From: a bacterium | Lineage (GTDB): Bacteria; UBA9089; CG2-30-40-21; SBAY01 | DNA length: 45,484 bases | Direction: 5' to 3' | Assembly: GCA_040754115.1 (NCBI GenBank) | Contig: JBFMDD010000018.1 | Coordinates: 1 to 45,484 of the forward strand | Shown: piece by piece, positions 3,560 to 41,008 of the stretch | Position numbering within the stretch: the stretch's first letter is position 1 | How the letters are laid out: each line of letters starts with the position of its first letter | Notes under the pieces: model-generated | What the model saw: the letters and a program-made list of their open reading frames with translations, nothing else | Database searches by the model: none | Told to the model about the DNA's origin: nothing | Program-made: the position numbers and the translations under genes

Positions 3560-4618
3560 ATGAAGAATCCTATAAAAGTTTTAGTAGTAGATGATTCAGC
3601 CATTATTCGAGATGCGATAGCTAATGCATTAGAAAGTGAAGAAGATATAAAATTAATAGGAACAGCAAGTAATGGTAAGGAGGCAATAGATTTAGTACAA
3701 GAATTAAAACCAGATATAGTCACTATGGATATTGTAATGCCGATTATGGATGGATTACAGGCAACTGAATATATCATGGCTTATCACCCAACACCTATTT
3801 TAATTGTTACTTCCCTACTGCCTAAAGACATGGAAATTGCATTTAAGGCATTACATGTTGGAGCATTAGATATAATAGAAAGACCATCTATTTCTGAATT
3901 ATCAAAGCCAACATCAAAAGTAAGAAAGGAACTAATAGATAAGGTAAAAATACTGGCAAATGTAAAAGTAATTACACATTTGGGAGGGAGATTTCAAAAG
4001 AAAGAAAGGAAACCATTAGAACCTACATCTCAAAAACAAGAGACAAAATTTAAGATAATTGGGATAGCCTCCTCTACTGGAGGACCTAAAACAGTAAAAA
4101 AAATCTTATCTAAATTGCCGGTTGATTTTCCCATACCAATAGTTATTGTCCAGCATATATCAGATGGATTTACTAAAGGATTAGTTGATTGGTGGAATAA
4201 TGAATGTGCAATAGAAATTCATGAGGCAAAAGATGGAGAGAGACTGTGTCAAGGTGTAGCTTATGTAGCACCATCTTTTGTACATATGAGAGTAACTAAA
4301 AATGGAAGGATAAAATTAGAAGATACGCCACCAGTAGGTGGACATAGACCGTCAGCAAATGTTTTACTTTCGTCAGTAGCAGAAGCTTATCCTCAAACCG
4401 CTATAGGTATAATTCTCACTGGAATGGGAGACGATGGTGCAATTGGAATAAAAGCAATTAAAGATGCAGGAGGATTTACTATAGCAGAGGATGAAGAAAG
4501 CTGTGCTATATTTGGTATGCCAAGGGTAGCAATTGAAATGGGTGTGGTAGATAAAGTTATGCCTTTAGATGATATACCAGATGAAATAATAAGGAGAGTA
4601 AAAAATACAAATGCCTGA
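3560..4618 (+). CDS. cheB: Chemotaxis response regulator protein-glutamate methylesterase CheB
   Basis: N-terminal receiver (KVLVVDDSAIIRD...DIVMPIMDG) plus the methylesterase core with GIASSTGGP, VQHISDGF and GMGDDGA motifs. AGGAGG RBS. Confidence 0.9.
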   Translation: MKNPIKVLVVDDSAIIRDAIANALESEEDIKLIGTASNGKEAIDLVQELKPDIVTMDIVMPIMDGLQATEYIMAYHPTPILIVTSLLPKDMEIAFKALHVGALDIIERPSISELSKPTSKVRKELIDKVKILANVKVITHLGGRFQKKERKPLEPTSQKQETKFKIIGIASSTGGPKTVKKILSKLPVDFPIPIVIVQHISDGFTKGLVDWWNNECAIEIHEAKDGERLCQGVAYVAPSFVHMRVTKNGRIKLEDTPPVGGHRPSANVLLSSVAEAYPQTAIGIILTGMGDDGAIGIKAIKDAGGFTIAEDEESCAIFGMPRVAIEMGVVDKVMPLDDIPDEIIRRVKNTNA

Positions 4619-6068
4619 TAAAATTTTGATTGCAGATGATAGCCCAACAATTGTAGAAATGCTAAGATTTTTCTTAGATAAGGAAGGATATAAAACCGTA
4701 GTAGCTAAAGACGGGATTGAAGCTATTGAGCAAGCATATATGGAATTGCCAGACCTTATGTTACTTGATGTGCTAATGCCAAAGATGAATGGATACCAAG
4801 TCTGTAGACTACTAAAAGGAGACGAAAATATTTCTTATATACCTGTGATTATGCTTACTTCTCAAGATCAACCAAAAGATAAATTCTGGGGACTACAAAC
4901 AGGAGCAGATGAATATATCATAAAGGATTTTGAATCTGAGGAGTTGTTTAATTCTATTATTAGAGTACTTGAGAAGACTAAAGAACAAAGGGAGAAAAAA
5001 CCAAAAGAAGTGCCTCAAACCACTATTGATAATATTCTATACCGCCTCAATGGACTTCTGGATAAAAAACTCTTTCAAACTACTATATTAAACGAAATTA
5101 ATCGTATTGCACGCACTTGTGATAATTGTGAGGATGTAATAAAGGAAATTTTAGGATTGCTAAATCGAGTGATAAACTATCATTTAGGTGCAATACTTAT
5201 AGAGCAAGATGAGATAATGAATATGATTGTGTATGTAAATCAATTAGTAGATGAAAGTTTTATAGTTGAGAGTATTGCTACTGTAAAAGAAGCAGGAATT
5301 ACAATGGCTGGATTTACAATTAGAAAGGATAATCTAAAGGTAAGAACTATTAGTGCAAGTCCCAAAAAGGGAAAAGGAGATTATCCTGAGAAAGTAAAAT
5401 CTTTCCTGACTATTCCAATGCGGGCGCACAAATCAGTAATTGGAATTCTTTATATTGCCAGTGCCTTTGAAAATGCCTTTAGCCCTGAAACAATAGAGCT
5501 ACTGAATATTATCGCTAATGAAGCTACAATTGTGGTTAATAATGCTATGTTTTATGACCAATTTAAACTGTTAGCCATTACCGATGGACTGACCAAATGC
5601 TATAATCATCGCCATTTTCAAGAAGTCCTTGAAAATGAATTCCAGCGGGCAAAGAGATACAAATTAACCTTTTCTCTATTAATTGGAGATATAGATAATT
5701 TCAAAAAGATAAATGATACCTACGGACATCAGAGAGGAGATGTGATTTTAAAAGGGATAGCCTCTTTATTAAAAAGTGGTGTACGGGATATAGATGTTGT
5801 TGCAAGATATGGTGGAGAGGAATTTGCAATCATTATGCCTGAAACAGATGCTAAAGGAGCTTATGGAACGGCTGAAAGATTAAGAAGCTCTATTGAAGAA
5901 TATATCTTCTCAGGACTTCCACCAAAAACTTATGTTACCATGAGTATAGGGGTAGGGACATATCCAGAGTTAAAAGCAACAAGTAAATTTGATTTTGTTG
6001 AAAAGATAGACAAAGCACTTTATCGTGCCAAAGAGGAAGGGAAAAATAGAGTCTGTGTTGCTTCTTAG
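4611..6068 (+). CDS. Response regulator with REC, GAF-like and GGDEF domains (WspR-like diguanylate cyclase)
   Basis: REC motifs (ILIADDSPT, DVLMPKMNG), a central GAF-like region and a GGDEF domain with intact GGEEF. An RxxD I-site (RDID) lies five residues upstream of GGEEF. The start overlaps the cheB stop by 8 nt. Confidence 0.88.
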   Translation: MPDKILIADDSPTIVEMLRFFLDKEGYKTVVAKDGIEAIEQAYMELPDLMLLDVLMPKMNGYQVCRLLKGDENISYIPVIMLTSQDQPKDKFWGLQTGADEYIIKDFESEELFNSIIRVLEKTKEQREKKPKEVPQTTIDNILYRLNGLLDKKLFQTTILNEINRIARTCDNCEDVIKEILGLLNRVINYHLGAILIEQDEIMNMIVYVNQLVDESFIVESIATVKEAGITMAGFTIRKDNLKVRTISASPKKGKGDYPEKVKSFLTIPMRAHKSVIGILYIASAFENAFSPETIELLNIIANEATIVVNNAMFYDQFKLLAITDGLTKCYNHRHFQEVLENEFQRAKRYKLTFSLLIGDIDNFKKINDTYGHQRGDVILKGIASLLKSGVRDIDVVARYGGEEFAIIMPETDAKGAYGTAERLRSSIEEYIFSGLPPKTYVTMSIGVGTYPELKATSKFDFVEKIDKALYRAKEEGKNRVCVAS

Positions 6069-6105: not shown

Positions 6106-7647
6106 GTGAAATACCACCAAATAGAACCTGATATTAGTGATGAAGAATTCTTATTATTCCAAAACTTTATATTACAAAATAGTGGTATATTTATAGATGA
6201 GGCTAAACGAGACCAATTAAGAAGAGCCCTGTTATCTCGAACTACATTTATGAATCTCACTGGATATGCTGATTACTATAAATTTTTGAAATATAACCCA
6301 AGAGGAGAAGAGGAATTTAAAGAATTACTTAACTTAATTACCATAGGTGAAACATACTTTTTCCGTGATGCAAAACATTTTAACACACTGCGTAAGCATG
6401 TATTGTTAGAAATTATCAAAAGAAAACAGTCTGCGGGTAATAGGGGTATTAAAATCTGGTCTGCAGGCTGTTCTACTGGTGAAGAGCCTTATTCGATTGC
6501 TATTACTTTGTTAGAAAGCCTACAACCTATACAGATGTGGGATGTGGAAATATTAGCTTCAGATGTTAGTACCAGGGCATTAAAGACAGCTCAGGAAGCG
6601 GAATATTCCAAATGGTCTCTCAGGTCTACTAATAGAAGTTACATTGAGAAATACTTTATTCAGGAAGGTAAAAAATTTACTCTAAAAGATGAAATCAAAA
6701 AGATGGTAAATTTTGAGTTTTTTAATCTTATCAAAGAACCATTTCCTCTGTCTAAAATGGGTGATTATTGGGACATCATCTTTTGCAAAAATGTAACTAT
6801 CTACTTTAAACCTGAATCTACAAAACGGGTAATAAGTAATTTTTATAACAGTCTACAAAAAGAAGGTTACCTATTTATTGGTGCTTCAGAATCTCTATAT
6901 CATATATCAAGTGAATTCAAATTATTAGAAATAGAGGGGAACTTTATATATCAAAAACCAGTTGAGGAAATCGTTAAAAAACCAGTTGAAGACCAAAAAG
7001 TAGTTATAGAAAAGATTACTCCGCCAACAAAATTACCCAAAAAACCTAAAAAGGTTGATGAGTTAAAAAAAGAAGTAGAAGAAATTAAACAAAAAGCAAA
7101 AGTTCCATCTGATGATAAAAAAATAGATGAATTATATAAAACTGCTCAATATTATTTTGAGGAAGATATGTTTGAAAAGGCATTATTTGAATTGATGAAG
7201 ATAATTGAGCTCACGGATGAACATTCTGAAGCCTTTCTTATGTTAGCAGATATTTATGCCAATAAAGAGCAATTTGATGATGCAGAAAGGGAATGTCGTA
7301 AGGCATTGCAACTTAATTCATTACTCTCGCCTGCTCATTTCCTTTTAGGTATCATCCTTAACAAGAAGGGGAAAATAGAAGAAGCCATTAATGAATTTAA
7401 GAAAACTATCTATTTAGACCCTAATTTCCCTTTAGCCCACTTTAACCTCGCCAATATCTACTATGAAAACAGAGACTATCAAAAAGCTACAACACAATAT
7501 AAGGCGACGATAGATATATTGAATAAAAATACAGATATCCCTGCTAAAATTAGTGGTGGGTTCTCAAAAAATATCCTAATCCAAACATGCCAGCGAAAGA
7601 TAGAAAAGATAGAAGAGGAAACTTCAAAACGGTTCACTTTAATGTGA
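6106..7647 (+). CDS. cheR: Chemotaxis protein methyltransferase CheR with a C-terminal TPR domain
   Basis: ETYFFRD and IWSAGCSTGEEPYS SAM-MTase motifs, a Lys/Glu-rich linker, and TPR-like repeats (ADIYANKEQFDDAERECRKALQLN..., ANIYYENRDYQKA). GTG start with an AAGGAGG RBS. The last 6 codons and the TGA fall inside MITE-B-derived sequence. Confidence 0.88.
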   Translation: MKYHQIEPDISDEEFLLFQNFILQNSGIFIDEAKRDQLRRALLSRTTFMNLTGYADYYKFLKYNPRGEEEFKELLNLITIGETYFFRDAKHFNTLRKHVLLEIIKRKQSAGNRGIKIWSAGCSTGEEPYSIAITLLESLQPIQMWDVEILASDVSTRALKTAQEAEYSKWSLRSTNRSYIEKYFIQEGKKFTLKDEIKKMVNFEFFNLIKEPFPLSKMGDYWDIIFCKNVTIYFKPESTKRVISNFYNSLQKEGYLFIGASESLYHISSEFKLLEIEGNFIYQKPVEEIVKKPVEDQKVVIEKITPPTKLPKKPKKVDELKKEVEEIKQKAKVPSDDKKIDELYKTAQYYFEEDMFEKALFELMKIIELTDEHSEAFLMLADIYANKEQFDDAERECRKALQLNSLLSPAHFLLGIILNKKGKIEEAINEFKKTIYLDPNFPLAHFNLANIYYENRDYQKATTQYKATIDILNKNTDIPAKISGGFSKNILIQTCQRKIEKIEEETSKRFTLM

Positions 7648-7789
7648 AAGATTGCGATTAAAAAATGGATATGAAATTAGAAATTAGAAATTAGAAATTA
7701 GGGAAAGAAGTGAAGACCTAATTTCTAATTTCCAATTTCAGTGTGGATATCCAAAAGAAATCATAGGAAAAACGATAAGATGAACCGTC
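7628..7789 (-). mobile_element. Truncated MITE family B copy (reverse orientation) bridging cheR and the yfhO-like gene
   Basis: Aligns with the copy at 22440-22602: AAACGGTTCACTTTA..GTGAAAG.TTGCG.TTAAAAAATGGA, then the (GAAATTA)n hairpin, then GGAAAAACGATAAGATGAACCGTC. Both outer termini are missing. Confidence 0.7.
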
Positions 7790-10074
7790 TCGAAAATGTA
7801 TTAGCAATTTTTATATTACTTTTACTCTTATCTATCTTCTTTTGGAAGGCTATTACTCTACAAGGGCTGTGGGTAACTGGTGAGTTTAGCCTGTCGGATA
7901 TTACAGAGCTTAATTTCCCACTTAAATATTTACTTTATGACTCATTACAAAAATTTTCACTTCCGTTATGGACTAAAGACCTGCTATGTGGCTATCCTGC
8001 ATTTGCAGAAGGAGAAGGTGGACATTTATATCCGTTGAATCTACTTCTTTTTTCTTTCCTGCCTCCATTAGCAGCATTTAATTACAGCCTTATTATCTCT
8101 TATTTATTAGCTGGATTTTTTACATATCTATTTGCCCGCAAGATTAAATTAAGTTGGTATTCCTCACTAATTAGTGGAATTATCTTTATGTTTTCTGGCT
8201 TTTTAGTTACTCATCTTAAACATCCATCTATGATTTCAGCCTGCTCTTTAATGCCTCTTTTGTTTTATCTTGTAGAGTGCTATTGGGGTCAGATTGGTTT
8301 GACCCCTTTAATTCTGGCTGGTGTTATCTTTGGCTTACAAATATTAGCAGGACATCAACAAATAACGGTTTATTCCATGGTTGGGGTAAGTTTATACTTT
8401 TTATTCAGATTTTTAATAACATTATTTATTGAAAATTATTCTCAGCCTAAAAAAAGGAGAAAAACAAAAAAACTCAATAAATTGAGGAAGCCATTTAAAG
8501 ATACAAGTCTAAAACTTGCATTCTTTACCTTAATAATCATTATTGGGCTTGGTATAGGAGCAGTCCAAATTCTACCTACCTACGAGCTTTCAAATCATTC
8601 CTATCGGTCAGCGGAAATAGGATTTGAAAATATTGTAAGATTCCCTTATCCTCCAAAACATCTAATCACATTTATCAAACCATATTTTTATGGTGATCCA
8701 GGTGAAGGAACATATTCTATACCAGGTGAAGAATGGGGTTTTTTCTGGGAAAATACAGGTTATGTAGGAATATTACCGTTAATTCTCTCACTAATTGGGA
8801 TAACCTTTATTTTTCTTAGAAATAAAAAGGCATCATTTTCTCCTGCAAATATCTTATCCAGTAACCAACACATTATCTTCTTTTCTTTTTTATTGATTTT
8901 TTCAATCCTGCTGGTATTAGGCAAATATGGTCCACTATTTCCTTTACTTAAGTTACCTGTTTTATCTACATTTAGATTTCCTGCACGATTTTTGATGTTA
9001 GTAGATTTCTCATTGGCTATCTTGACTGCATTTGGAATAGAGGTTTTATTGAATAAGGTTAAATTCAAGAAGATAATCAAATGTTGTATTCTGCCTATTA
9101 TTGTAATTGATTTATTTATCTTTGGGCTGAAATTTAATCCTACTATTTCACCTAAACTATGGTTTGAAAAACCTGAATCTGTAAAGTTTTTAGAAAAAGA
9201 TAAAAGCATATATAGAATTTATAGTCTTGGGGCAGAAGCGACCTGGAGTCATGTATATTTCAGTATAAGTCATGGCTGGCGAAAGAACCTGTTACCTTAT
9301 CTAAAACATCGAGAGATATTGGCAGTTAATTCCAATCTACTTCATGGAGTCTCAAATGCAGATGCCTATTTCCCACTTCTGCCTTTAAGACCATGGATGT
9401 TTAAAAAATTTATAGAACAAAATATTAATTTTGATAATCGTCGAGGAATAGCCATTATTCCACCACATCTAATGAAGATAATGAGTATGTTAAATATAAA
9501 CTACATCCTTTCATTTTATCAAGTTGAAAATGAGAAATTAGATTTAGTTAAAACAATTGATGTAGGAGAAGGATTGCCACCATTAAAGATTTATAAAAAC
9601 CATAGTTGTCTTCCAAGGGCATTTTTAGTACCAACTACAAGAGTAGTTTCTGATGCGAATAAGATTATCCAGGAGCTAACAAAAGAGGATTTTGAGCCTA
9701 AAAAGGAAGTAATTGTAGAAAAAGAAATTCCTCATCCCTCATCCCTCATCCCTCATCCCTCGTCCCTTGTTGAGATTGTAACTTACCAATCTAACAAAGC
9801 CATACTTAATGTTTCTTCCCCTACTGATTGTATTCTATTTATGAGCGATACTTATTATTCTAGCTGGAGAGTATTTATAGATGGAGTTGAAGGAGAGATA
9901 TTTCCTGCTAATTTAGGATTTAGAGGAGTTGCTTTAAGTAAAGGAGAGCATGAAGTAAAATTTGTTTACAAACCAAAGGCATTTAAAATAGGCTTAATTA
10001 TCACTTTGATAACCATCTTATTGCTCATTAGTTACTCTGGCGGCGTTATACTAAAACTGAAGGATAAATTTTAA
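7780..10074 (+). CDS. YfhO-family polytopic membrane protein (putative glycosyl-transfer / glycopolymer-modifying protein)
   Basis: Many TM segments. The C-terminal block FIDGVEGEIFPANLGFRGVALSKGEHEVKFVYKPKAFKIGLIITLITILLL resembles YfhO C-termini. I prefer ATG 7780 (MNRLENVLAIF...) over GTG 7741 because 7741-7779 is MITE sequence. Confidence 0.75.
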   Translation: MNRLENVLAIFILLLLLSIFFWKAITLQGLWVTGEFSLSDITELNFPLKYLLYDSLQKFSLPLWTKDLLCGYPAFAEGEGGHLYPLNLLLFSFLPPLAAFNYSLIISYLLAGFFTYLFARKIKLSWYSSLISGIIFMFSGFLVTHLKHPSMISACSLMPLLFYLVECYWGQIGLTPLILAGVIFGLQILAGHQQITVYSMVGVSLYFLFRFLITLFIENYSQPKKRRKTKKLNKLRKPFKDTSLKLAFFTLIIIIGLGIGAVQILPTYELSNHSYRSAEIGFENIVRFPYPPKHLITFIKPYFYGDPGEGTYSIPGEEWGFFWENTGYVGILPLILSLIGITFIFLRNKKASFSPANILSSNQHIIFFSFLLIFSILLVLGKYGPLFPLLKLPVLSTFRFPARFLMLVDFSLAILTAFGIEVLLNKVKFKKIIKCCILPIIVIDLFIFGLKFNPTISPKLWFEKPESVKFLEKDKSIYRIYSLGAEATWSHVYFSISHGWRKNLLPYLKHREILAVNSNLLHGVSNADAYFPLLPLRPWMFKKFIEQNINFDNRRGIAIIPPHLMKIMSMLNINYILSFYQVENEKLDLVKTIDVGEGLPPLKIYKNHSCLPRAFLVPTTRVVSDANKIIQELTKEDFEPKKEVIVEKEIPHPSSLIPHPSSLVEIVTYQSNKAILNVSSPTDCILFMSDTYYSSWRVFIDGVEGEIFPANLGFRGVALSKGEHEVKFVYKPKAFKIGLIITLITILLLISYSGGVILKLKDKF
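9730..9764 (+). repeat. Heptanucleotide array (CCTCATC x4 + CCTCGTC) inside the yfhO-like CDS
   Basis: Read directly. It is translated as IPHPSSLIPHPSSL. Confidence 0.9.
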
Positions 10075-10144: not shown

Positions 10145-10522
10145 GTAACCGTTCAGGTAGCTAAGAATTTTGCAGTTTATCAGGTTCAAGGTTCCATGTT
10201 CAGGGTTCAAGGTTACTAATCGATAAAGATTATACTGGACACTGCCATTAACTGAGCTATTTAGGGACGGTTTATTTTCATCGTTTTCACGGTGATTTCT
10301 TTTGGAAATTAGAAATTGGAAATTAGGTCTTCACTTCTTTCCCAAATTTCTAATTTCATATCCATTTCTTAACCGCAAGCTTTCACGCTAAAGTGAACCG
10401 TTTCTAAAATCGCAATTTGTAACGGTGTTGAGTATAAATGAATCCTTACAAACAGCTAAGCAAATCAACTCAGGAGCACACACCCAACCCTGAACCTTGA
10501 ACCGGGAACCCTGAACGGTTAC
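10145..10522 (+). mobile_element. MITE family A (termini GTAACCGTTCAGG / CCTGAACGGTTAC) carrying a nested MITE B
   Basis: The two halves (10145-10230 and 10437-10522) are collinear with the uninterrupted 170-bp copy at 15625-15794. The termini are inverted repeats and the arms contain (AGGTTCA)n heptamers. Confidence 0.8.
10231..10436 (+). mobile_element. MITE family B (206 bp; termini TATACTGGACAC / GTGTTGAGTATA) nested in MITE A
   Basis: Near-identical to 17409-17614. The filled site AAAGAT-TA-[element]-TA-AATGAA compares with the empty site AAAGATTAAATATC in the 15625 copy, suggesting a TA target duplication. Confidence 0.8.
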
Positions 10523-15624: not shown

Positions 15625-15794
15625 GTAACCGTTCAGGTAGCTAAGAATTTTGCAGTTTATCAGGTTCAAGGTTCCAGGTTCAGGGTTCAAGGTTACTAAG
15701 CGATAAAGATTAAATATCAAATCCTGACAAACAGCTAAGCAAATCAACTCAGGAGCACACCCCCAACCCTGAATCTTGAACCTTGAACGGTTAC
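15625..15794 (+). mobile_element. MITE family A, uninterrupted 170-bp copy
   Basis: GTAACCGTTCAGGTAGCTAAG...(AGGTTCA-type heptamers x5)...CTTGAACGGTTAC. It serves as the empty-site reference for the nested copies at 10145 and 23869. Confidence 0.8.
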
Positions 15795-15855
15795 CTCTTT
15801 TTTAGAGGATAAATCCTCTACTCTATTAAAGTTATCGAGCGAAGCAAGATTTTTC

Positions 15856-15883
15856 TTGACACAAAAATTTTATATGGTATAAT
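15856..15883 (+). promoter_or_regulatory. Near-consensus orphan promoter (TTGACA - 16 nt - TGgTATAAT) with no substantial downstream ORF
   Basis: -35 TTGACA at 15856-15861 and -10 TATAAT at 15878-15883, preceded by TGG. It points toward 15884-16317, which holds only very short ORFs, and then into the 3' end of galT (antisense). Confidence 0.45.
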
Positions 15884-17408: not shown

Positions 17409-17614
17409 TATACTGGACACTGCCATTAACTGAGCTATTTAGGGACGGTTTATTTTCATCGTTTTCACAGTGATTTCTTTTGGAAATTAGAAATTAGGTA
17501 TTCACTTCTTTCCCCAATTTCTAATTTCTAATTTCATATCCATTTTTTAACCGCAAGCTTTCACGCTAAAGTGAACCGTTTCTAAAATCGCAATTTGTAA
17601 CGGTGTTGAGTATA
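17409..17614 (+). mobile_element. MITE family B, full-length copy (206 bp)
   Basis: TATACTGGACACTGCCATTAACTGAGC ... GTAACGGTGTTGAGTATA. Near-identical to 10231-10436 apart from the number of central GAAATTA/AATTTCT heptamers. Confidence 0.8.
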
Positions 17615-19623: not shown

Positions 19624-21072
19624 ATGAATTTAAAACAAGCTAATGAGTTAGCCTGGTTAAAGGAAAAGTATCCTGAGATGGATGTGGACAAGTTTGATCA
19701 AATTCGACAAAAATATCTAAATGGTGAATTGGAAGTAGTCTACGATGAGCAAATTCAATCGTTAAAGGGAACAAAGTATATGAGTTCCTATGAGGAATTG
19801 CCAGCCATTGAAGAACAAAATGGACTCCCTAAAGGCTACTTCCACAATAGAGGAGTTGAATTAGGAAGAAATAGCAAATTAGGTATGATAGTGTTAAATG
19901 GTGGTGTGGCTACATCGTATGAAAAGGAATTGGGCTATCGACCGACTAAAGGCATATTTCAAGCAATTATGTACACACCTATCAGTTTTATTGCTATCAA
20001 ACTCCATTCGATTTATCAATATCAAAAGGAAGGGATATTTATACCAACATATTTTATGAACAGTCCTGCTACTGATAAAGATACCAGAGACTACCTTGAA
20101 AAATTTAATAATTTTAATCTAAAAATCAAGCCAAAACATTTCTGCCAGGATTTAGGTTGGCCAAGAATCGACCCGCAAACAGGTAGCTTAATTACCCGCA
20201 AAAGTGGTAGAGTAAGCGTGGTTACCAAAGGGCATGGTGATGTGTATCAGGCATTTGATAAAAGTGGACTTTATGATGAATTTGTAGATAAAGGTGGAGA
20301 GGTGCTTTTAATTTGTAATATTGATAACTCAGAGGCAAAAATAGATATGGCTATTGCAGGTTACTTCTCATGGCTTAATGAAACACAAGGAGTACAAATA
20401 ATGTTTGAATCTGCCCCACAACTCCAAGATGACAAAAAGGGAGGAAAATGCGTATTGATGAAAAGACCTGATGGGAATATGGGGCCTGGAATATTAGAAC
20501 TAACTCGGATTTCACCCAACCTGCATGATGACTTGCAAAATATACAAGAATTTAATACCAATATGTGTTGGTTACATACCTCAATTGATAGAAGGTTATT
20601 TGATTTACCGTTCCGGGTGGTAAAAAAAACCCGCTTGAGTGATGTTGATGACCCGGAAATCAGTAAGAGTGGCGATGAGCAGGTAATACAATTTGAACAT
20701 GAGTCCCATAAACTAATGGAACTTGTAGAGTTAGGTCATTCACATGTGCTTTTAGTCCCACGAGATTTACGATTCTGGCCTAATAAATACTTCCATGACC
20801 AGATTAAAAAACAAAAACAATTAGTTGAAAAGTATAAAGAGCTGTATGATTGGATGTTTGAATTAAATCCCAAGGCTAATGAAAGTATCCTACAAGTCAA
20901 GGATGAATTGCTAAAGCAACTGGGGTTTGAAAAAGAAATTGTAACTTCGAGAATAAAGATTAGAGGATTAGAAGATAAGAGAGTAGAGAATCTTAGGTGT
21001 ATCGGGACAGTTCACTTTTGTTTGAAAGCTTGCGGAAAGAAAAGAGAGTTGAAATTGAAAGGTAGAAATTAG
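19624..21072 (+). CDS. UDPGP-family (UTP-hexose-1-phosphate uridylyltransferase-like) protein; the C-terminal ~40 codons read through repeat DNA
   Basis: Motifs VLNGGVATSY, KGHGDVYQAF and CNIDN resemble eukaryote-type UGPase/UAP family signatures. From about 20950 the ORF runs into heptamer and MITE-B-like sequence (..GTVHFCLKACGKKRELKLKGRN). Confidence 0.6.
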   Translation: MNLKQANELAWLKEKYPEMDVDKFDQIRQKYLNGELEVVYDEQIQSLKGTKYMSSYEELPAIEEQNGLPKGYFHNRGVELGRNSKLGMIVLNGGVATSYEKELGYRPTKGIFQAIMYTPISFIAIKLHSIYQYQKEGIFIPTYFMNSPATDKDTRDYLEKFNNFNLKIKPKHFCQDLGWPRIDPQTGSLITRKSGRVSVVTKGHGDVYQAFDKSGLYDEFVDKGGEVLLICNIDNSEAKIDMAIAGYFSWLNETQGVQIMFESAPQLQDDKKGGKCVLMKRPDGNMGPGILELTRISPNLHDDLQNIQEFNTNMCWLHTSIDRRLFDLPFRVVKKTRLSDVDDPEISKSGDEQVIQFEHESHKLMELVELGHSHVLLVPRDLRFWPNKYFHDQIKKQKQLVEKYKELYDWMFELNPKANESILQVKDELLKQLGFEKEIVTSRIKIRGLEDKRVENLRCIGTVHFCLKACGKKRELKLKGRN

Positions 21073-21208
21073 AAATTAGAAAATTGGCATAGAATTAGAA
21101 GTTTTTCTTTCCATTTTCATACAAATGGATATCCGAAAGAAACCATAGGAAAAACGATAAAATAAACCGTCCCGGTGTATCTTTTAACCAGACTACCTGA
21201 ACTGTTAC
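21004..21208 (-). mobile_element. Degenerate MITE B-like copy followed by a family-A-type right terminus (CCTGAACTGTTAC)
   Basis: GGGACAGTTCACTTTTGTTTGAAAGCTTGCGG...(GAAATTA)n...GGAAAAACGATAAAATAAACCGTCCC aligns with family B in reverse orientation. The terminal CCTGAACTGTTAC is at 21196-21208. Confidence 0.55.
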
Positions 21209-21211
21209 CTT

Positions 21212-22306
21212 TTAACTTATTTCCTTTTTTTCTTTTATAAACTCATTGATAGTTAGTTGAATTGGGAAGAGGAAGTTTTTTGCCTCATCTTTAAAAAATA
21301 ATAATTGTGGTGGTGTTGGGCTGGCAAAATCATGTTCATTTAGAGGTGCGGCGAGGAATTCTTCAGTTTTTTCTGGTGAAATGATAACTACAGGCCTAAA
21401 TACAGCCTCAAAACCCGTTCTAAGTGCTTTATACATTTTTTCTAATGGAATGATTCTGGTTTCATCTCCAAATTGTTCTGCAAATGAATGTTTCTCATCC
21501 CTTATCCCTAAATAAACGGTTAAATGAGTAGTATATTTTTCTGGATAATGAGTGGCATAATACTTACCGGTGAGTATATCTCCAGGTAATACACTATTAA
21601 TGGCTTTTTCATCTAAAGGAAGATATGTTTTTGATTCCTTCCAAATATCTATTCCCCTTTTTCCGTTTCTGTCCATCTTTTCATATACTGCAGACCCTTT
21701 GCTTAACATTAAATCAAATATTTCCCATGTAGAACTTTTAAAATCACCATCATCAATCAGCCCAATCTTTATCAGGAAATTATCTATGGCGTCATATTCA
21801 TCTCCTCTGTAATAACTTGAATTTAATATCTGATAAATTTTTTCAAAACATTGTTTTTCTTGTAAAGAGGGGGTTTTTGGTACACTTGAATTATAATTAT
21901 TTAGTGGATTCTCCATGAGACTATCAATTATTTCTTTAATTTTGACCACCTTTAATGAATAATCTAACATCTCATTTACATTCGTATAGCCTAATTCTGC
22001 TGATAATTTTTTAAGCCAGACCGCATAGAGCATCTGAACTGTAGCTGTGCAGTTATACTTTTCATAATTGTTTGGGATTTGATAAACTGTTAAACTTTTC
22101 CAAAATTTACTTATGTATATGGGAATATTATTTATTAAATTTAGGTCTTTATCTTTGGAAATATGAACTAACTCATCTCTATCTACAAGAAGTGCATTTA
22201 TATCATGAGAATAAGAATTTAATATAATCAAGATAAAGGCAATGGAGATGACAAAAATGACCTTTTTAAACAAATTCGTTTCGTTTTTTACAATAAATTC
22301 ACTCAT
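21212..22306 (-). CDS. Hypothetical membrane-anchored protein, possibly a papain-like / NlpC-P60-like fold
   Basis: N-terminal TM helix (VIFVISIAFILIILNS). A Cys (YNCTATVQML) and a later LPGDIL...THLTVYLG pattern resemble NlpC/P60 Cys-His arrangements. The start could be 22339 (GTG) or ATG 22306. Confidence 0.5.
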   Translation of the reverse strand: MSEFIVKNETNLFKKVIFVISIAFILIILNSYSHDINALLVDRDELVHISKDKDLNLINNIPIYISKFWKSLTVYQIPNNYEKYNCTATVQMLYAVWLKKLSAELGYTNVNEMLDYSLKVVKIKEIIDSLMENPLNNYNSSVPKTPSLQEKQCFEKIYQILNSSYYRGDEYDAIDNFLIKIGLIDDGDFKSSTWEIFDLMLSKGSAVYEKMDRNGKRGIDIWKESKTYLPLDEKAINSVLPGDILTGKYYATHYPEKYTTHLTVYLGIRDEKHSFAEQFGDETRIIPLEKMYKALRTGFEAVFRPVVIISPEKTEEFLAAPLNEHDFASPTPPQLLFFKDEAKNFLFPIQLTINEFIKEKKEIS

Positions 22307-22410
22307 TTGATTTTTTCCTGTCAGAATAGAAACATTCACCGTTTACTTTTTTTAACTTTCTACTCTCTTTTATATATCGGCAAATTCGTTAGATTTCTTA
22401 ATAATTTTTG

Positions 22411-22439
22411 TTGACAATATGGTAATTTAGATGTAAAAT
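22411..22439 (+). promoter_or_regulatory. Promoter candidate for hisI (TTGACA - 17 nt - TAAAAT)
   Basis: -35 at 22411-22416 and -10 at 22434-22439. It is immediately followed by a complete MITE B, which would form the 5' UTR. Confidence 0.45.
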
Positions 22440-22602
22440 TATACTCAACACTGTTACAAATTGCGATTTTTAGAAACGGTTCACTTTAGCGTGAAAGCTT
22501 GCGGTTAAAAAATGGAGTTGAAATTGGAAAGTAGAAATTACATGGAAAACGATGAAAATGAACCGTCCCTAAATAACTCAGTTAATGGCAGTGTCCAGTA
22601 TA
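22440..22602 (-). mobile_element. MITE family B, reverse orientation (163 bp), in the hisI leader
   Basis: TATACTCAACACTGTTACAAATTGCGATTTTTAGAAACGGTTCACTTTAGCGTGAAAGCTTGCGG...CAGTTAATGGCAGTGTCCAGTATA is the reverse complement of the 10231 and 17409 copies. Confidence 0.8.
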
Positions 22603-22628
22603 TCTTTAATCAAGGAGATGGAAACAAA

Positions 22629-22955
22629 ATGGAGTTTAAATTTGATGAAAAGGGATTAATTCCAGCAATAATTCAAGATGAGGCGACCAAAGATGTTTTA
22701 ATGGTAGCTTATATGAATAAGGAATCTTTACAAAAAACATTAGAAACTGGGAAAACACACTTTTGGAGTCGGTCAAGACAAACATTATGGTTAAAAGGAG
22801 AGACTTCTGGACATTATCAATTAGTTAAAGAGATATGGTATGATTGTGATGAAGATACATTATTAGTTAAGGTAGAACAAATAGGTGATGTTGCGTGCCA
22901 TACGGGTGAGCGAAGCTGCTTTTATAGAAAATTATATCCTGCAACTGATGTGTAA
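22629..22955 (+). CDS. hisI: Phosphoribosyl-AMP cyclohydrolase HisI
   Basis: [34 protein letters not shown]...[12 protein letters not shown]...[39 protein letters not shown] upstream of ATG 22629. The 22512 start of the tracked ORF lies inside the MITE and is rejected. Confidence 0.9.
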
Positions 22956-22978
22956 TAATAGGATATTATGGAGGAGTA

Positions 22979-23852
22979 ATGACCGATATAATTCCAGTTG
23001 AAAAAATAGAGAATAGAATATTTCAGATAAGAGGCAAGGTAACCGTTCAGGGTGTAATGAAGGGAAAAATGGGAAATAATGGGAAAAGGGGGAATTTATT
23101 TTTATGTATAGGAATTTGATAGTTGTTCTGGTCATTCCCACATTATAGTCTTTGGAAAAGTAAGTTCCTCTTTTTGGAGTGCGGTAGCTTGCTACCGCTT
23201 TGAGCAAATCGCAAGCACGCTCTCGCCGTCCAAAGCGAAAGCAAGCTTTCGCACTCCACATTTTGAACATACTGATCACTGTTCACTGAACATACTGATC
23301 ACTGAAAATTAAAATTTGAAATGAAATCCTCTAATATTTTTCCTATTTTCCCTACTTTTCCATTTTTCCTTACTTACACCTGAACGATTACGAGGCAAGA
23401 AGGTAATGCTGGATAGAGATCTGGCAGAATTGTATGGCGTTTCAACAAAGGTTTTAAATCAAGCGGTTAAAAGAAATTTAAAAAGATTCCCGGAAGATTT
23501 TATGTTTAGGTTAACTAATGCTGAAAAATACAAGGTGGTCACAAATTGTGACCACCTTAGAGTATTAAAATTTTCACCACAATTACCGTTTGCTTTTACT
23601 GAGCAAGGTGTGGCAATGCTTTCAAGCGTTTTAAACAGTGAAAGGGCTATTATGGTGAATATTCAGATTATGCGTGCTTTTATAAACTTGTGAAGGATTG
23701 GTTTAACCTATGTTGAATTAAAACGAAAAATTGAAGCAATAGAGAAAAAATATGATGAACAATTTAAGGTTGTTTTCCATGCGATAAAGAAGTTATTAGA
23801 GCCAACACAAGTAGAAGGGAAAAAGAGGAAAATAGGATTTCGTAATAGTTGA
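22979..23852 (+). pseudogene. ORF6N-domain (KilA-N-related DNA-binding) gene, disrupted by a MITE insertion and an in-frame TGA
   Basis: Exon-like parts: MTDIIPVEKIENRIFQIRGK (22979-23048) and, after the [40 protein letters not shown]...[13 protein letters not shown]...[10 protein letters not shown], then TGA at 23691-23693. The same frame continues RIGLTYVELKRKIEAIEKKYDEQFKVVFHAIKKLL...GFRNS to the stop at 23850-23852. Confidence 0.8.
23049..23391 (+). mobile_element. MITE family C (343 bp), termini GTAACCGTTCAGGGTGTAA / TTACACCTGAACGATTAC, flanked by a perfect 8-bp TSD GAGGCAAG
   Basis: TSD copies at 23041-23048 and 23392-23399. Removing the element plus one TSD copy restores the ORF6N frame (IRGK|KVMLDRD). 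It contains a GC-rich double hairpin (23176-23257) and no credible ORF. Confidence 0.88.
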
Positions 23853-23868
23853 AAAGGGAATTATACTT

Positions 23869-23971
23869 GTAAGCGTTCAGCTAATAATTTTGCAGTTTAT
23901 CAGGTTCTAGGTTCAGGGTTCAAGGTTCAAGGTTCAAGGTTCAAGGTTCAAGGTTACTAAGCGATAAAGAT
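23869..23971 (+). mobile_element. MITE family A left half (GTAAGCGTTCAG...) with an expanded heptamer array (8 units); right half absent
   Basis: Collinear with 15625-15711 and 10145-10230, but with 8 rather than 5 AGGTTCA-type units (23902-23957). It is followed by a MITE B at the same internal junction as in the 10145 copy. Confidence 0.7.
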
Positions 23972-24267
23972 TATACTGGACACTGTCATTAACTGAGCTA
24001 TTTAGGGACAGTTTATTTTCATTTTCATCGTTTTTCACGGTGATTTCTTTTGGAAATTGGAAATTAGAAATTGGGGGACGGTTCATTTTCATCGTTTTTC
24101 CTGTGATTTCTTTTGGATTTTAGGAATTGTTCATGGAACGCTGAAATTGGAAATTAAACTTTCACTGCTCTCCCCAATTTCTAATTTCATATCCATTTTT
24201 TAACCGCAAGCTTTCACGCTAAAGTGAACCGTTTCTAAAATCGCAATTTGTAACGGTGTTGAGTATA
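23972..24267 (+). mobile_element. MITE family B copy with an internal partial duplication (296 bp)
   Basis: The termini TATACTGGACACTGTC ... GGTGTTGAGTATA are as in the other copies. The segment GGGACGGTT.ATTTTCATCGTTTTTC..GTGATTTCTTTTGGA occurs twice. Confidence 0.75.
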
Positions 24268-24323
24268 ATTATTTTTCGTGTAATTCGTGTCATTCGTGGT
24301 TCAAAAGTATTTTCAGGAGAATT

Positions 24324-33326: not shown

Positions 33327-36300
33327 TTATTCTATTGTTGGCGGGAGGTTGACATGGATTTTGACTTTCTTTGTATCTTCTCCACCTTTACCATCGGTTA
33401 CTTTGAAGGTTATTTGATAAGTACCATTCTGGTCTTTGGTAGGACGCCAACTGAAAATTTTAGTTTCTTTAGAAAAACTTGCACCTTCGGGTAAAGAGGA
33501 TATAGCATAAGTTAATTTGTCATCATCTGGATCAAAGCCTGAAACATTGAATTGTAATAATTCACCTATATTTATTATTGTATCTTTTATTATAGATAGT
33601 GTAGGAGATATATTTTTATCAATTATAGTTAATACCCAATTTTGAAGTACTACAGATGTTCCATCTGTTATAGTTAAAATTAGTGTTTTAATTCCTGCAT
33701 CTATATGACTTGGAGTGTATGTCCATGCGTTATCAGTAGATTTTTCTACTCCATCCAGTTTCCAATTATATTTTATTTCATCATGATTAGGGTCTGATGC
33801 ATATACCTCAAAGGTTAATGGCTCCCCTTCAAATATAGTTGGTGATAAATCTACTGGTGTGTACGACCAGATTATTGGCGAAGGATTAAATGTAGTAAAC
33901 TTCCAGGTAACTGGTTTTTGGAGATAATTACCCATTATATCTCTTGCCTCCATTGAAACACTCACTGTATATTTTGTATTTCCTGATAAATCAGAGATAG
34001 GTGTAAAAATAAGTTTATTTGCCCTCCATGTAAAACTGCCTAAGGTATCAGGCGTAATAGAAAATGCCTGTATTACTGACTCCTCATCCATCTTTTCACT
34101 AAAAGTGATTGTAATAACTTCTTCAGGTGAAACATTACTCCCAGTTGGAGTATAAGCTATTATCTTGGGGAAAATACTGTCTTTAGGAATCCCTACATAC
34201 TGAGCAGAAGGCATAGATTTATTCCCATAAATATCAAAGGTAAAGAAGGTGTAATAATAAGGTAAATTATTGACCAGAGCAGTATCAATATAAGTAGTCT
34301 CTTTTATTCCATCTGCTATAAGATTTCCTAATTTACCTTTAACAATCGAGCGATAAATCTGAACATGTGAGAATAAAAATGCCTTTTCTTTTGGCTTTTG
34401 CCAGCTTAATTTTAATTTCTCTCCTCCTTCTAAAGGTGTAATAGAGACTTCTGTTGGTAATGAAGGAGGTAGCGTTAATGTTATGCCAGAAGAGGATCTG
34501 CAATATTCTGAACTACCATTTTTATTAAATGCCTTTATTCTATAATAATAAGTTGTATCTGGAAGGAGATTTTTATCTTGATAATTGGTGGTATTCGGTA
34601 AGAGAATTGTCAATTGAGTATAAGCCTCATGCGGCGTACCTCGTTCAACAATAAAGCCTGATTCATCTTTTGAGTTATCCCTAAAGCTAATGTTTATCTG
34701 AGAATAAAACACTACCTCTGTAACTAAATTATCCGGAGCAATCGGTGGTTTATACCCTTTACCTATGGCATATAGTTGCCCATTATTAGCTCCTACATAA
34801 ACAGTCCCATCTTTACCAATATTCGGAGATGTACTAATTTTAGAGTCAATAGTATAATTCCATTTTAACTTCCCATTTTTTGATATACAACATAAATTAT
34901 AATCCTTTGAGATGGCATATATATTTCCCGCAGAATCAATTATTGGACTAAAAGTACTCCACCCAATAGGATATTCCCATAGAATTTTACCATTTTGTGC
35001 CACAGCTCTTAAACTACCTTCTTGAGAATTCCAACATATATTATAATAAATTATACCATCAGGAGTTATAATTGGTGAGAAATTCAGCCAACCTTTTCCC
35101 TCATGCTCAATTTTAAATCGAATCGTTCCTTGAGGAGTGAAAGAATAAAGTGCATTATTAAGTCCAATATAAACATTCCCATTTGAGTCGATTGCAGGGG
35201 CTGTAATAGCCTCACCTGCGGTTGTATATTCCCATTTAAGCATACCAGTTGAATCAAGGCAAAATAGCCCACCATCTATTCCTTTTGCACCGATGTAGAT
35301 ATTTCCATTAACATCAATTGCTGGAGTGAAAGAAATCATTCCACCACCAATATAGCTTGACCACCTGAGTCTTCCATCTGGATGAATAGAATATACCTTC
35401 CCATTCCATGTAAATACATGAATTGCAAAATTATGTCCAATTACAGGAGAGCTCTCAATCGGGAATTTAATAGGATATTTCCACTTTAATGTCCCATCTG
35501 GTAATATAGCATATAGATTTTTATCCGAAGATAATACATAGATTACTCCATCCTCACCAATTACTGGTGATGTATTTATCGCTCCTTGCGTAGGATAACG
35601 CCATATTAATTCACCTTTGGAAGAAAGACAATAAAGATATGAATCTTCTGAACCTATATAAATCCTTCCTTTAGTATCAATTAAAGGATTAGAGCGATAA
35701 ATTCTATATTTAGTAGGATATGTCCACGAAAGGGCAGGAGAATCTATACCTGAATAAGGACTTATACCAGCTGGTTGAATTTTAGGTGCTGGTTTAGGCG
35801 GTGCAAGATGTGTCTTAACCATGGTTATATTTGAGTAGTCAGAGTTACCATCCTGATTATACGCCCTTACACAATAGTAGTAAGTTGTATTTGGAGTAAG
35901 TTGTATATCATGATATGAGGTAGTGTTTGCAAGGGTAACAGCTACCTGAACAAACTCTTTCTCATCTATAGTTTTGCGCTCTATTTTAAATCCCAACTCA
36001 TTATCTGAATTATCTTTCCATGTAAGTTTTATCTCGAAGTGAGAAATAGGTATTGCTTCCAGGTCAGTTGGAGGTGAAGGAGTAATTTGAGTTATTTCTG
36101 TAGAAACCTCTTCTGAGTATTTAGAGTATCCTTCATCATTATATGCACGGATTCGATATAGATAAGTAACTTTTGGTAAAAGCCCGGTATCCTGATATTC
36201 AGTTATATCCTTTGATACTGTATTTAGTTGTATATAGGTACCATCTTCTTGCTTCCTTTCTATTTCAAATCCTAATTCATTTATAGAGTTATCCTGCCAT

Positions 36301-39848: not shown

Positions 39849-39861
39849 ATATAAAGGCAAT

Positions 39862-40035
39862 TTAGAACCTCTTTTTTCTGCGAGCGATAATTCTTCTTCT
39901 TCTCTCACTCGGCTTTTCATAATACTCACGTTTCTTCATTTCAGTAATTATCCCTGCTGATTGGCATGAGCGTTTAAATCTCCTTAACGCATTATCAATA
40001 GATTCATCATCTCGAATCTTTATTCCTGCCGGCAT
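39862..40035 (-). CDS. rpsU: 30S ribosomal protein S21
   Basis: [60 protein letters not shown] at 40033-40035. The longer tracked ORF start (40098) is rejected. Confidence 0.9.
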
Positions 40036-40516: not shown

Positions 40517-41008
40517 CTATGCGGCTATTTTCTTTTGTATCTCCTTTTTTATCTCAGCTATATCTTGTTCCATCTTAATAACTCTTATATCTAATTTTTC
40601 ATGCTCTTCTCGTCTTACAATTACCTCATAAAGCTGATTTATCCTGTAATTTGTTCCATCTATTCTTTTATTTGTTTCATCTATCCTTTTATTTGTTTCA
40701 TCTATCCGAAGAGTATTCTTTCCTATCTCCTCCTTCAATTCTACCCTCAATTCATTTATTTCATTCCTCAATTCTACCCTCAATTCATCTATTCTCTTGT
40801 TCGTATCATCTATTCGCCTACTTTGATCAACAAGATGAGTATTAATATTATCAAGTCGTTTATTAATATCATCAACTCGTTTGTTGGTAAGTTCTAAAAT
40901 TGTCTTAATCTCTTTATTCTCTGCCTTCATTATCTCAAATTCAGGTAGTATAAACTCTTGTATAATCTTTTTTATAGTGTCACCTATCTCCATTCTTTTC
41001 TCCTCCAA
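40517..41008 (-). CDS. Coiled-coil protein with internal tandem repeats (hypothetical)
   Basis: 163 aa. Contains repeated NKRIDETNKRIDETNKRIDGTN (21-bp DNA repeats) and ELRVELRNEINELRVELKEEI (33-bp repeats). No enzymatic motif. Confidence 0.6.
   Translation of the reverse strand: MEEKRMEIGDTIKKIIQEFILPEFEIMKAENKEIKTILELTNKRVDDINKRLDNINTHLVDQSRRIDDTNKRIDELRVELRNEINELRVELKEEIGKNTLRIDETNKRIDETNKRIDGTNYRINQLYEVIVRREEHEKLDIRVIKMEQDIAEIKKEIQKKIAA

Follow-up and report, generated by a model that had tools for sequence, protein, structure and literature searches.

How does one miniature transposable element come to sit at the same position of another, time after time, in a single bacterial genome? 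The question is raised by a stretch of 45,484 nucleotides, referred to below as the window, from a bacterium of the GTDB lineage UBA9089; CG2-30-40-21; SBAY01 (NCBI GenBank assembly GCA_040754115.1, contig JBFMDD010000018.1, forward strand). At positions 10145-10522 of the window a MITE (miniature inverted-repeat transposable element) of one family, here named B, interrupts a MITE of a second family, A, and at 23869-24267 the same junction recurs without the right half of A. Nested MITEs are textbook matter in plants and have rarely been worked out in bacteria. Descriptions of these particular element families were not found in the literature searched.

The window is the largest contig (C18) of a 2.86-Mb draft genome, G000, which consists of 365 contigs with a G+C content of 34.7%, an estimated completeness of 94% and an estimated contamination of 3.8%. 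Small repeats (MITEs) of at least eight families, in several hundred copies, fill its intergenic regions, and many of its contigs end within repeats. A cyanobacterial origin, which the heptamer repeats had at first suggested, was dropped, as the relatives of a histidine kinase encoded in the window are uncultured MAGs from outside the cyanobacteria. Two genomes of the same taxonomic family, G003 and G005, serve as references below; both belong to genera other than that of G000.

We find that B was inserted into A and that a TA was duplicated in the process. The nested pair is an ordinary, known kind of genome parasite and not a new kind of system. For the recurrence of the junction, the explanation we put first, with about half of our confidence, is that a few insertions were followed by copying of the composite and then by frequent recombination among the repeats.

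Family B lies within family A at a duplicated TA

The nested locus and its empty-site reference comprise the following features.

10145-10230, plus strand: left half of family A, with the terminal inverted repeat GTAACCGTTCAGG, an array of GGTTCAA-type heptamers and then ..CGATAAAGAT; 97.7% identical to A positions 1-88
10231-10232, no strand: left-hand TA of the target duplication that B generated; a single TA stands here in the intact A at 15625-15794
10233-10263, plus strand: left inverted end of B, 31 nt, TACTGGACACTGCCATTAACTGAGCTATTTA; 124 copies in the genome; 18/34 positions match the right end of B, and 18/34 match the ends of an IS630-family element of G003 (contig C338)
10264-10404, plus strand: D-type MITE core within B, GGGACGGTTTATTTT...GTGAACCGTTTC, with GAAATTR heptamers; query positions ~30-171 alone match other families of the phylum
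10405-10434, plus strand: right inverted end of B, 30 nt, TAAAATCGCAATTTGTAACGGTGTTGAGTA; 123 copies in the genome; 25/34 identical to one end of the G003:C338 element
10435-10436, no strand: TA, right copy of the target duplication; 114 of 120 right flanks of B are TA
10437-10522, plus strand: right half of family A, ending ..CCTGAACGGTTAC, without 14 nt (CTTTAAAAATATCA) of the canonical A centre
15625-15794, plus strand: uninterrupted family A, 11-bp deletion variant, empty-site reference; its flanks CTTCTTTT/CTCTTTTT agree at 6/8 positions

The nesting of B in A at a TA, first proposed from the letters of the window alone (hereafter the sequence-only reading), was borne out to the base. The whole inner B occupies 10233-10434, reads TACTGG..GAGTA and is 202 bp long; the length of 206 bp originally given for the family includes both flanking TAs. 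With the sequence GAT-TA-AAT, and hence a single TA, the intact A of 15625-15794 serves as the empty site for the insertion. Canonical A reads ..GATTAAATGCTTTAAAAATATCAAATCC.., of which this intact copy is an 11-bp deletion variant, and the 14 nt missing from the right half at 10437 fall in the same stretch as that deletion. The left half at 10145 was aligned with 39 other left parts of A.

The second locus consists of two parts.

23869-23971, plus strand: left half of family A with eight heptamer units, right half absent, as read from the sequence and the alignment of A left parts
23972-24267, plus strand: TA, then a rearranged 292-bp B (23974-24265), then TA; this B is made up of a B left end, a partial core, a second D left end, a long core variant and a B right end

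Here the left half of A meets B at 23972-23973, at exactly the same TA as at 10231, and position 24265 and its TA are followed by unique DNA without any right half of A. The recurrence of the junction and the missing half, both claimed by the sequence-only reading, were thus found as described. Flanks are unique at both window loci.

Across G000 there are 14 junctions between the left parts of A and B. All lie at the same TA (position 87 of A, TA87), which is one of at least ten TAs in A, and all have the same orientation; no A/B junction in reverse orientation occurs in the 2.86-Mb assembly. Together with the TA flanks of B counted below, such a pattern lies far outside chance, and the junction is much commoner than the window alone shows. 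Junctions between the right parts of B and A number seven, six with the canonical A centre and the window copy with its deletion-variant right half. The right half of A is missing at 8 of the 14 junctions, and one more (in C197) runs off the contig end.

Probable parentage of family B

Copies of B measure 202 bp plus or minus multiples of seven (195, 202, 209 and 216 bp), owing to the GAAATTR heptamers. The ends (31 and 30 nt; TACT...AGTA), TACTGGACAC.. and TACTCAACAC.., are imperfect inverted repeats with 18/34 positions matching. G000 contains 124 left and 123 right ends of B. The TA flanks of the nested copy are general in the family, being present at 116/116 left and 114/120 right ends in the whole assembly. 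Flanks consist of unique DNA in 193 of 233 cases, and 88% of B copies occupy unrelated unique sites, with about 110 copies in unrelated DNA.

Duplication of TA is the hallmark of IS630/Tc1-mariner-type transposition. Tabulation of the flanks at 68 unique sites gave a weak, palindromic target logo, A-R-T/TA/A-Y-T, as would be expected if a symmetric complex of a DDE transposase made a staggered cut of 2 bp. A candidate relative of the parental insertion sequence (IS) lies in G003:C338 (648-1895), where a 1,248-bp TA-flanked IS630-family element with two open reading frames (ORFs) matches the Pfam families HTH_23/HTH_29/HTH_33 and DDE_3 (7e-24). Its ends match the right end of B at 25/34 and 23/34 positions and each other at 23/34; an unrelated IS630-like end reaches only 10-12/34 against B. 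Because the target logo is symmetric and the ends of this element match the right end of B, we assign B to the IS630 type, in agreement with what had been suspected from the TA duplication.

The interior of B is of a different origin. The 141-nt core has ends of its own, GGGACGGTT.../...GAACCGTTTC, the left of which follows 122 of the 124 left ends of B while the right precedes all 123 right ends, and neither a shell-only nor a coding version of B was found in G000. The D core is the only part of B that matches other families of the phylum. Free copies of the D/C type have GGGAYGGTTCA ends and 8-bp duplications (44 of 87 with at most one mismatch), and D is an older and much more widespread third MITE. 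Complete B is present in ~124 copies in G000; two genomes of another genus contain 2-4 copies apiece, and the others among 25 genomes of the phylum contain none. Metagenome scans for the B end returned nothing except one chance match in an unrelated contig. From its ends and core, family B is an IS630-type MITE in which two IS ends enclose a captured D core.

Little is left of a transposase in G000. The sequence-only reading had seen no transposase gene in the window, and none was found in the 18 scanned ORFs of at least 150 aa, with the ORFs 3560-4618, 4611-6068, 33327-39929 and 40517-41008 standing outside the scan. A profile search of G000 gave no DDE_3 match. One contig end (C309:4402-4527) lies inside an IS630-type element, of which it contains 126 nt with an end that reads TATACC.. 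and the final 37 codons of a transposase. This 37-aa fragment is 65% identical to the G003:C338 transposase, and the 126 nt are 73% identical to the end region of that element; the C309 end matches the right end of B at 20/33 positions in a hand alignment. Contig C180 carries a solo end of the G003:C338 type. Among the three kinds searched (B-parent-type IS630, CTAG-targeting IS630-like and IS66), the C309 fragment is the sole trace of a transposase in G000. The genome-wide search for IS630- and IS66-like transposases that had been proposed at the outset thus yielded none intact in G000, and degenerate ISs with matching ends in G003.

An IS630-like element beside a B copy in G003:C185 was considered as the parent of B and rejected: its ends (TAGTGTCGTGTTGAG..) match B at 10/34 positions, and B is merely inserted in a second copy of such an end. 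At this locus (L006 127-1345 and 1486-1745) the element targets CTAG, has ends TAGTGTCGTGTTGAGCAAATTTCGCAC and encodes its transposase in two overlapping ORFs; at the same place another 130-bp MITE lies at CTAG between the element and the second copy of its end, the one that holds B. A stretch of 40 nt of the CTAG-targeting end has matches at about 29 places in G000 (e.g. C97:8266-8307), which are probably MITE derivatives.

Probable parentage of family A

Canonical A is ~181-188 bp long and non-coding, with ends GTAACCGTTCAGGTA and arms built of heptamers, and its single strand folds as a long hairpin (z = -5.5). About 40 left regions of A are present in G000, most copies having GCTTTAAAAAT at the centre, and ~21 copies lack an insert at TA87. 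Nearly all copies carry the ends GTAACCGTTCAGG / CCTGAACGGTTAC and so begin with GTAA. Among 18 uninterrupted copies, six have perfect 8-bp target duplications and one has a duplication with a single mismatch (examples are AAATTAGG, GGGATTAG and TAAAATAG); the others have unrelated flanks. In a random control of 5,000 pairs of 8-mers there were no perfect pairs and three with one mismatch.

The terminal 15 nt of A are identical to both ends of a 1,563-bp IS66-family element in G003:C198 (L041 893-2455). Both ends of that element read GTAACCGTTCAGGTA, and its one long frame, broken by two stops, matches PF03050 (DDE_Tnp_IS66) with E = 1.9e-39. The features reported for the ISBst12 group are one ORF per element, ends of the form GTAAC..TCAG and a direct repeat of 8 bp, the ends and the repeat as reported for ISDge4 (PMC12898284). 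Because A has GTAAC..TCAG ends, an 8-bp repeat and ends in common with a single-ORF IS66 element, it is an ISBst12-type MITE, probably a deletion derivative of an IS66-family IS. The early hint of an IS66 connection is supported by the 8-bp duplications and the identical 15-nt ends. Neither a PF03050 match nor a tblastn match to an IS66 transposase was obtained in G000, an absence that a 94%-complete draft does not prove. No full-length A was found outside G000 among 41 relatives searched. Degenerate autonomous relatives of both parent IS types are present in G003.

How the junction may have multiplied

The sequence-only reading had left two options, a strong preference of B for this site or copying of the composite followed by truncation. 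A strong sequence preference finds no support in the target matrix of B. TA87 scores -1.21 in the forward and -2.09 in the reverse orientation, with no orientation asymmetry of the matrix, and TA102 of A scores 2.17; the unique sites used by B average 1.3 in leave-one-out scoring. Since the score of TA87 is ordinary and lies below that of TA102, the weak target preference of B does not predict its use. For a symmetric target, the probability of 14 of 14 insertions in one orientation is ~1e-4. A second, unrelated inner family, of C/D type with the target duplication GATAAAGA, likewise keeps to a single site and a single orientation in the five A copies that contain it, so that the common factor is A.

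Copying is favoured by private features of the copies, for which the composites were searched as had been suggested. A complex internal rearrangement of B occurs in only two G000 copies, the 292-bp copy at C18:23974 and a 286-bp copy at C328:837-1122. Both contain the long core variant with GGATTTTAGGAATTGTTCATGG, both are joined to a left half of A at TA87 and both lack the right half. Given that 14 of 124 B copies lie in A, the chance of both rearranged copies being hosted by A is ~0.012. Copies of A that host B also share rare alleles in their left parts, in 9 pairs against 3.0 +/- 2.0 by label shuffling (P = 0.013), among them GATAAAAAT (C68, C328) and GGTTATTAAG (C72, C328). One junction in 14 places and a private rearrangement in two of them point to copying of the composite.

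The insertion would have been a cut-and-paste event, as is known from the IS630/Tc1 family, in which an IS630-type transposase supplied in trans placed B at TA87 in the AT-rich centre of A. Duplication of the TA by such a transposase acting in trans is well supported. The junction may then have arisen once or a few times and multiplied. As the ends of A are intact in the composite, an IS66-type transposase could move A plus B as a longer A. Homologous recombination among the ~124 B and ~90 D-type copies would have exchanged flanks and made chimeras, and recombination or local deletion could have left half composites such as 23869-24267 without the right half of A.

Products expected of such recombination are present. 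Chimeras with a left part of B and a right part of D were found in C33, C137, C202 and C57, and the A surrounding the C33 chimera keeps a perfect GAAAAATG duplication. In C328 the order is left half of A, B and a reversed arm of J, a hairpin MITE family. About half of the copies of A, D/C and other families with A-type (GTAACC) ends have unrelated 8-bp flanks, and the other half have perfect duplications or one mismatch; the non-matching flanks are due either to recombination that often exchanges flanks or to errors of assembly. Recombination among repeats offers a way in which the right half of A can be lost, and the loss fits it better than an unexplained truncation; for the copy at 23869 it is one possible course.

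Several observations weigh against copying of the composite. The B copies hosted by A form no clade, requiring seven changes for seven copies, the same as with shuffled labels, on a star-like tree of low power. One hosted copy, that of C267, groups with solo copies in a separate and well-supported part of the tree, and the starred branches of the tree force at least two origins. Left-part haplotypes of the B hosts (CATG/CAGG, TAATCG/TAAGCG) occur in all four combinations, as they do among empty copies, so that several origins or gene conversion are needed. The recurrence of B at one TA of J, in both orientations and also in another genus, speaks for real hot spots. No intact IS66-type or IS630-type transposase is present in the G000 assembly, the assembly itself is a draft, and a reciprocal exchange with some remote locus does not account for the absence of the right half of A at 23869. 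The two families, both 2-3.5% from consensus, are similarly old, and timing therefore does not choose between the models.

The alternative that survives best is an insertion hot spot, in which all or most A/B junctions would be independent and a transposase or host factor would prefer this TA and orientation, and likewise one TA of J. We regard it as a possibility well short of even. The scatter of A-hosted copies over the B tree, in two B subgroups, and the presence of every haplotype of empty A copies among the B hosts are what independent insertions would give, and ~25-35% of A and of J copies are occupied. In J the site (CAATTAACAAT-TA-ATATTTGATGG) is used in C57, C75, C114 and C328, three times forward and once reversed, with the right part of J never attached at these junctions, and the same junction occurs in another genus (g4), as seen in G005 (G005:C346:5283-5527). 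Nested MITEs of plants have also been judged independent insertions, with preferences that are family-specific (Jiang & Wessler 2001, as relayed in PMC5172404). The B matrix, however, is weak and palindromic without orientation preference, and it scores TA87 and the J site alike at about -1.2, an ordinary value below the 2.2 of TA102. The single orientation of all 14 junctions and the 88% of B copies in unrelated unique sites speak against a hot spot, and so does the one-site, one-orientation pattern in A of a mechanistically different second inner family. Independent insertions would not predict that two copies have a private rearrangement in common, or that B hosts have rare alleles in common.

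About as probable is the specific proposal that the IS630-type transposase has true hot spots inside further MITE families, at TA87 in A and at a single TA in J, and that it recognises them by features other than the local 26-nt sequence, for example a hairpin or cruciform. If this were true, the choice at A would also be orientation-specific, one parasite would land preferentially in another, and the J/B junction of the second genus would be the same targeting repeated. Targeting of a hairpin loop was considered and is not supported, TA87 lying in the loosely structured centre of A at a position not comparable to the J site.

The G005:C346 locus (L075) has features of its own. The 41 nt next to B there are of the G000 type of J (98%) and not of the type native to G005 (~85%). 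Coding sequences at this locus are 74-80% identical to those of G000, and small modules and MITEs (B, the J fragment, a GGAGTG..CACTCC palindrome and a 340-520-bp element) are 90-98% identical. These identities suggest that small elements may have spread horizontally between genera recently.

A less probable course than a hot spot is gene conversion, in which B entered a single A and non-reciprocal homologous recombination then copied the insert to empty A copies, in a homing-like manner without a nuclease. Such conversion would account at once for the constant site and orientation and for the mosaic haplotypes of A, and repeat recombination is visible in the chimeras and the non-matching duplications; the sharing of rare alleles among B hosts is likewise net-like and not tree-like. 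We nonetheless consider it improbable, as the homology arms, ~88 and 95 bp with a divergence of 2-10%, would be short, a single lineage of the B parts would be expected and is not seen, and copies without the right half of A would go unexplained.

It is very improbable that the half composites, along with a share of the counted junctions, are artefacts of a short-read metagenome assembler crossing near-identical repeats into a wrong flank. The fragmented draft with its 3.8% contamination estimate, the many contigs ending in repeats and the ~half of MITE copies without matching duplications leave room for such errors. Against them stand the 14 different left variants of A and 14 different left flanks at the junction, the unique flanks at both window loci, the collinear join of the genes around the 23869 copy, which are neighbours in G003 and G005 as well, and the distance of 2-10% between B copies, normally passable for assemblers.

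That A and B are parts of one longer repeat unit, as the identical junction in 14 places might suggest, has practically no chance of being right, because ~21 A copies are uninterrupted at the site, ~110 B copies lie in unrelated DNA, the two have separate inverted ends and separate duplication lengths (8 bp for A and 2 bp for B), other genera have B without A, and full-length A was found in G000 only, a census that upholds the original view of A and B as independent elements.

The half composite and its neighbourhood

The genes that flank the half composite, 21212-22339 and trpE (24324), are divergent neighbours also in G003 and G005, where their spacing is 0.5-0.6 kb against 2.0 kb in the window. 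The conserved neighbourhood indicates that the join at 23869 is collinear and is neither an exchange with a distant locus nor a false assembly join; the loss of the right half of A at 23869 is thus local.

The extra DNA in 22340-24323 includes the short copy of B, the MITE of 353 bp whose ends are of A type, and the left half of A with the rearranged B.

Directly before the left half of A, 23862-23868 read TA-TACTT, which resembles the outermost 5-7 nt of an end of B type or IS630 type, and the unit 23864-24265 is TA-flanked, starts with TACT and ends with AGTA. The three further half composites whose left end of A is intact (C63, C68 and C222) have no such TA-TACTT start. Mobilisation of the left half of A and B as a unit by either transposase was rejected, as half composites have no 8-bp duplication and the right end of B has no inverted A-type end.

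Other repeats in the window and the genome

Further copies of these families lie elsewhere in the window.

7627-7795, minus strand: free D-type MITE, a relative of the B core without B ends
17409-17614, plus strand: solo family B (17411-17612), with TA on both sides, in unique DNA
21004-21174, minus strand: free D-type MITE
22440-22602, minus strand: short family B, 163 bp including the flanking TAs, with both ends present
23039-23391, plus strand: MITE of 353 bp with A-type ends GTAACCGTTCAGG...CCTGAACGATTAC and a perfect 8-bp duplication GAGGCAAG at 23031-23038 and 23392-23399

The window contains no Rfam match, and scans for promoters and terminators around the elements gave counts not above shuffled expectation.

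The 67 nt to the right of the intact A (15795-15861, CTCTTTTTTAGAGGATAAATCCTCT...) belong to a dispersed module with at least six copies. This module follows the right part of A at four loci (the window, C84, C72 and C125), another recurring junction of repeat families.

A three-level nest is found in C84:111-909, where a 409-bp MITE of A-end type (target duplication CCATTTTT) lies in a B, which in turn lies at TA87 of an A. The left end of this A is itself cut by a 272-bp MITE. The 272-bp family (ends CGACCTGTATGGTTA.. / ..TAACCATACAGCTCG) has more than 40 copies of 95-100% identity, e.g. C347:20748-21020, and since many contigs stop inside it, it is a main cause of the fragmented assembly. 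C84 and C191 were considered as filled and empty alleles of one locus and rejected, because their shared left flank is the 272-bp MITE and the shared right flank the 67-bp dispersed module.

Comparison with known systems and significance

Like MITEs of IS630/Tc1-mariner origin in bacteria, B has TA at both sides, a single TA at the empty site, no coding capacity, imperfect inverted ends of ~30 nt, a symmetric AT-rich target logo and ends homologous to a TA-flanked IS with an HTH and DDE_3 transposase. It differs from them in its interior, which is no remnant of a transposase gene and consists of the core of a further MITE family, one that has ends of another kind and duplicates 8 bp. The matching IS, moreover, is degenerate and lies in another genus, with only a 37-codon fragment assembled in G000. 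Family A shares its GTAAC..TCAG-start ends and 8-bp direct repeat with elements of the IS66/ISBst12 kind and departs from them in its length of 181-188 bp, its lack of coding sequence and its composition, mostly of tandem heptamers that vary in number; no parent IS is assembled in G000, and the G003 copy has two in-frame stops.

The autonomous elements IS1397, an IS3 member that inserts in the loops of BIME/REP repeats, and the REP-targeting IS110 members choose their targets by sequence or structure. As with these, B recurs at a single position and orientation of a hairpin-forming repeat. In contrast to them, B is a TA-duplicating MITE with 88% of its copies in unrelated unique sites and a matrix that does not single out the site in A.

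Nested MITEs of plants, such as Stowaway in Tourist, are described in the account of Jiang & Wessler (2001) relayed in PMC5172404 as having their own target duplications, with more than 10% of elements nested and some families serving as preferred hosts. The A-B nest resembles them, to the extent of that account, in all three respects. Whereas the plant nests were judged there to be independent insertions, the exact junction is repeated here at 14 places in a single orientation, and a private rearrangement is common to two copies; the host here, moreover, is a bacterial genome of 3 Mb.

The locus provides a clean bacterial example of a nested MITE pair in which both parent IS families, on the evidence of their ends, could be identified, an IS630-type element inside one of IS66/ISBst12 type. 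It illustrates how a MITE may be constructed, two IS ends being wrapped around the core of another MITE, and, if the composite was indeed copied, how a junction between two elements multiplies and is then scrambled by recombination. Its practical weight lies mostly in the annotation and assembly of an uncultured lineage, in which such repeats break contigs, reach into the ends of genes and probably drive rearrangements.

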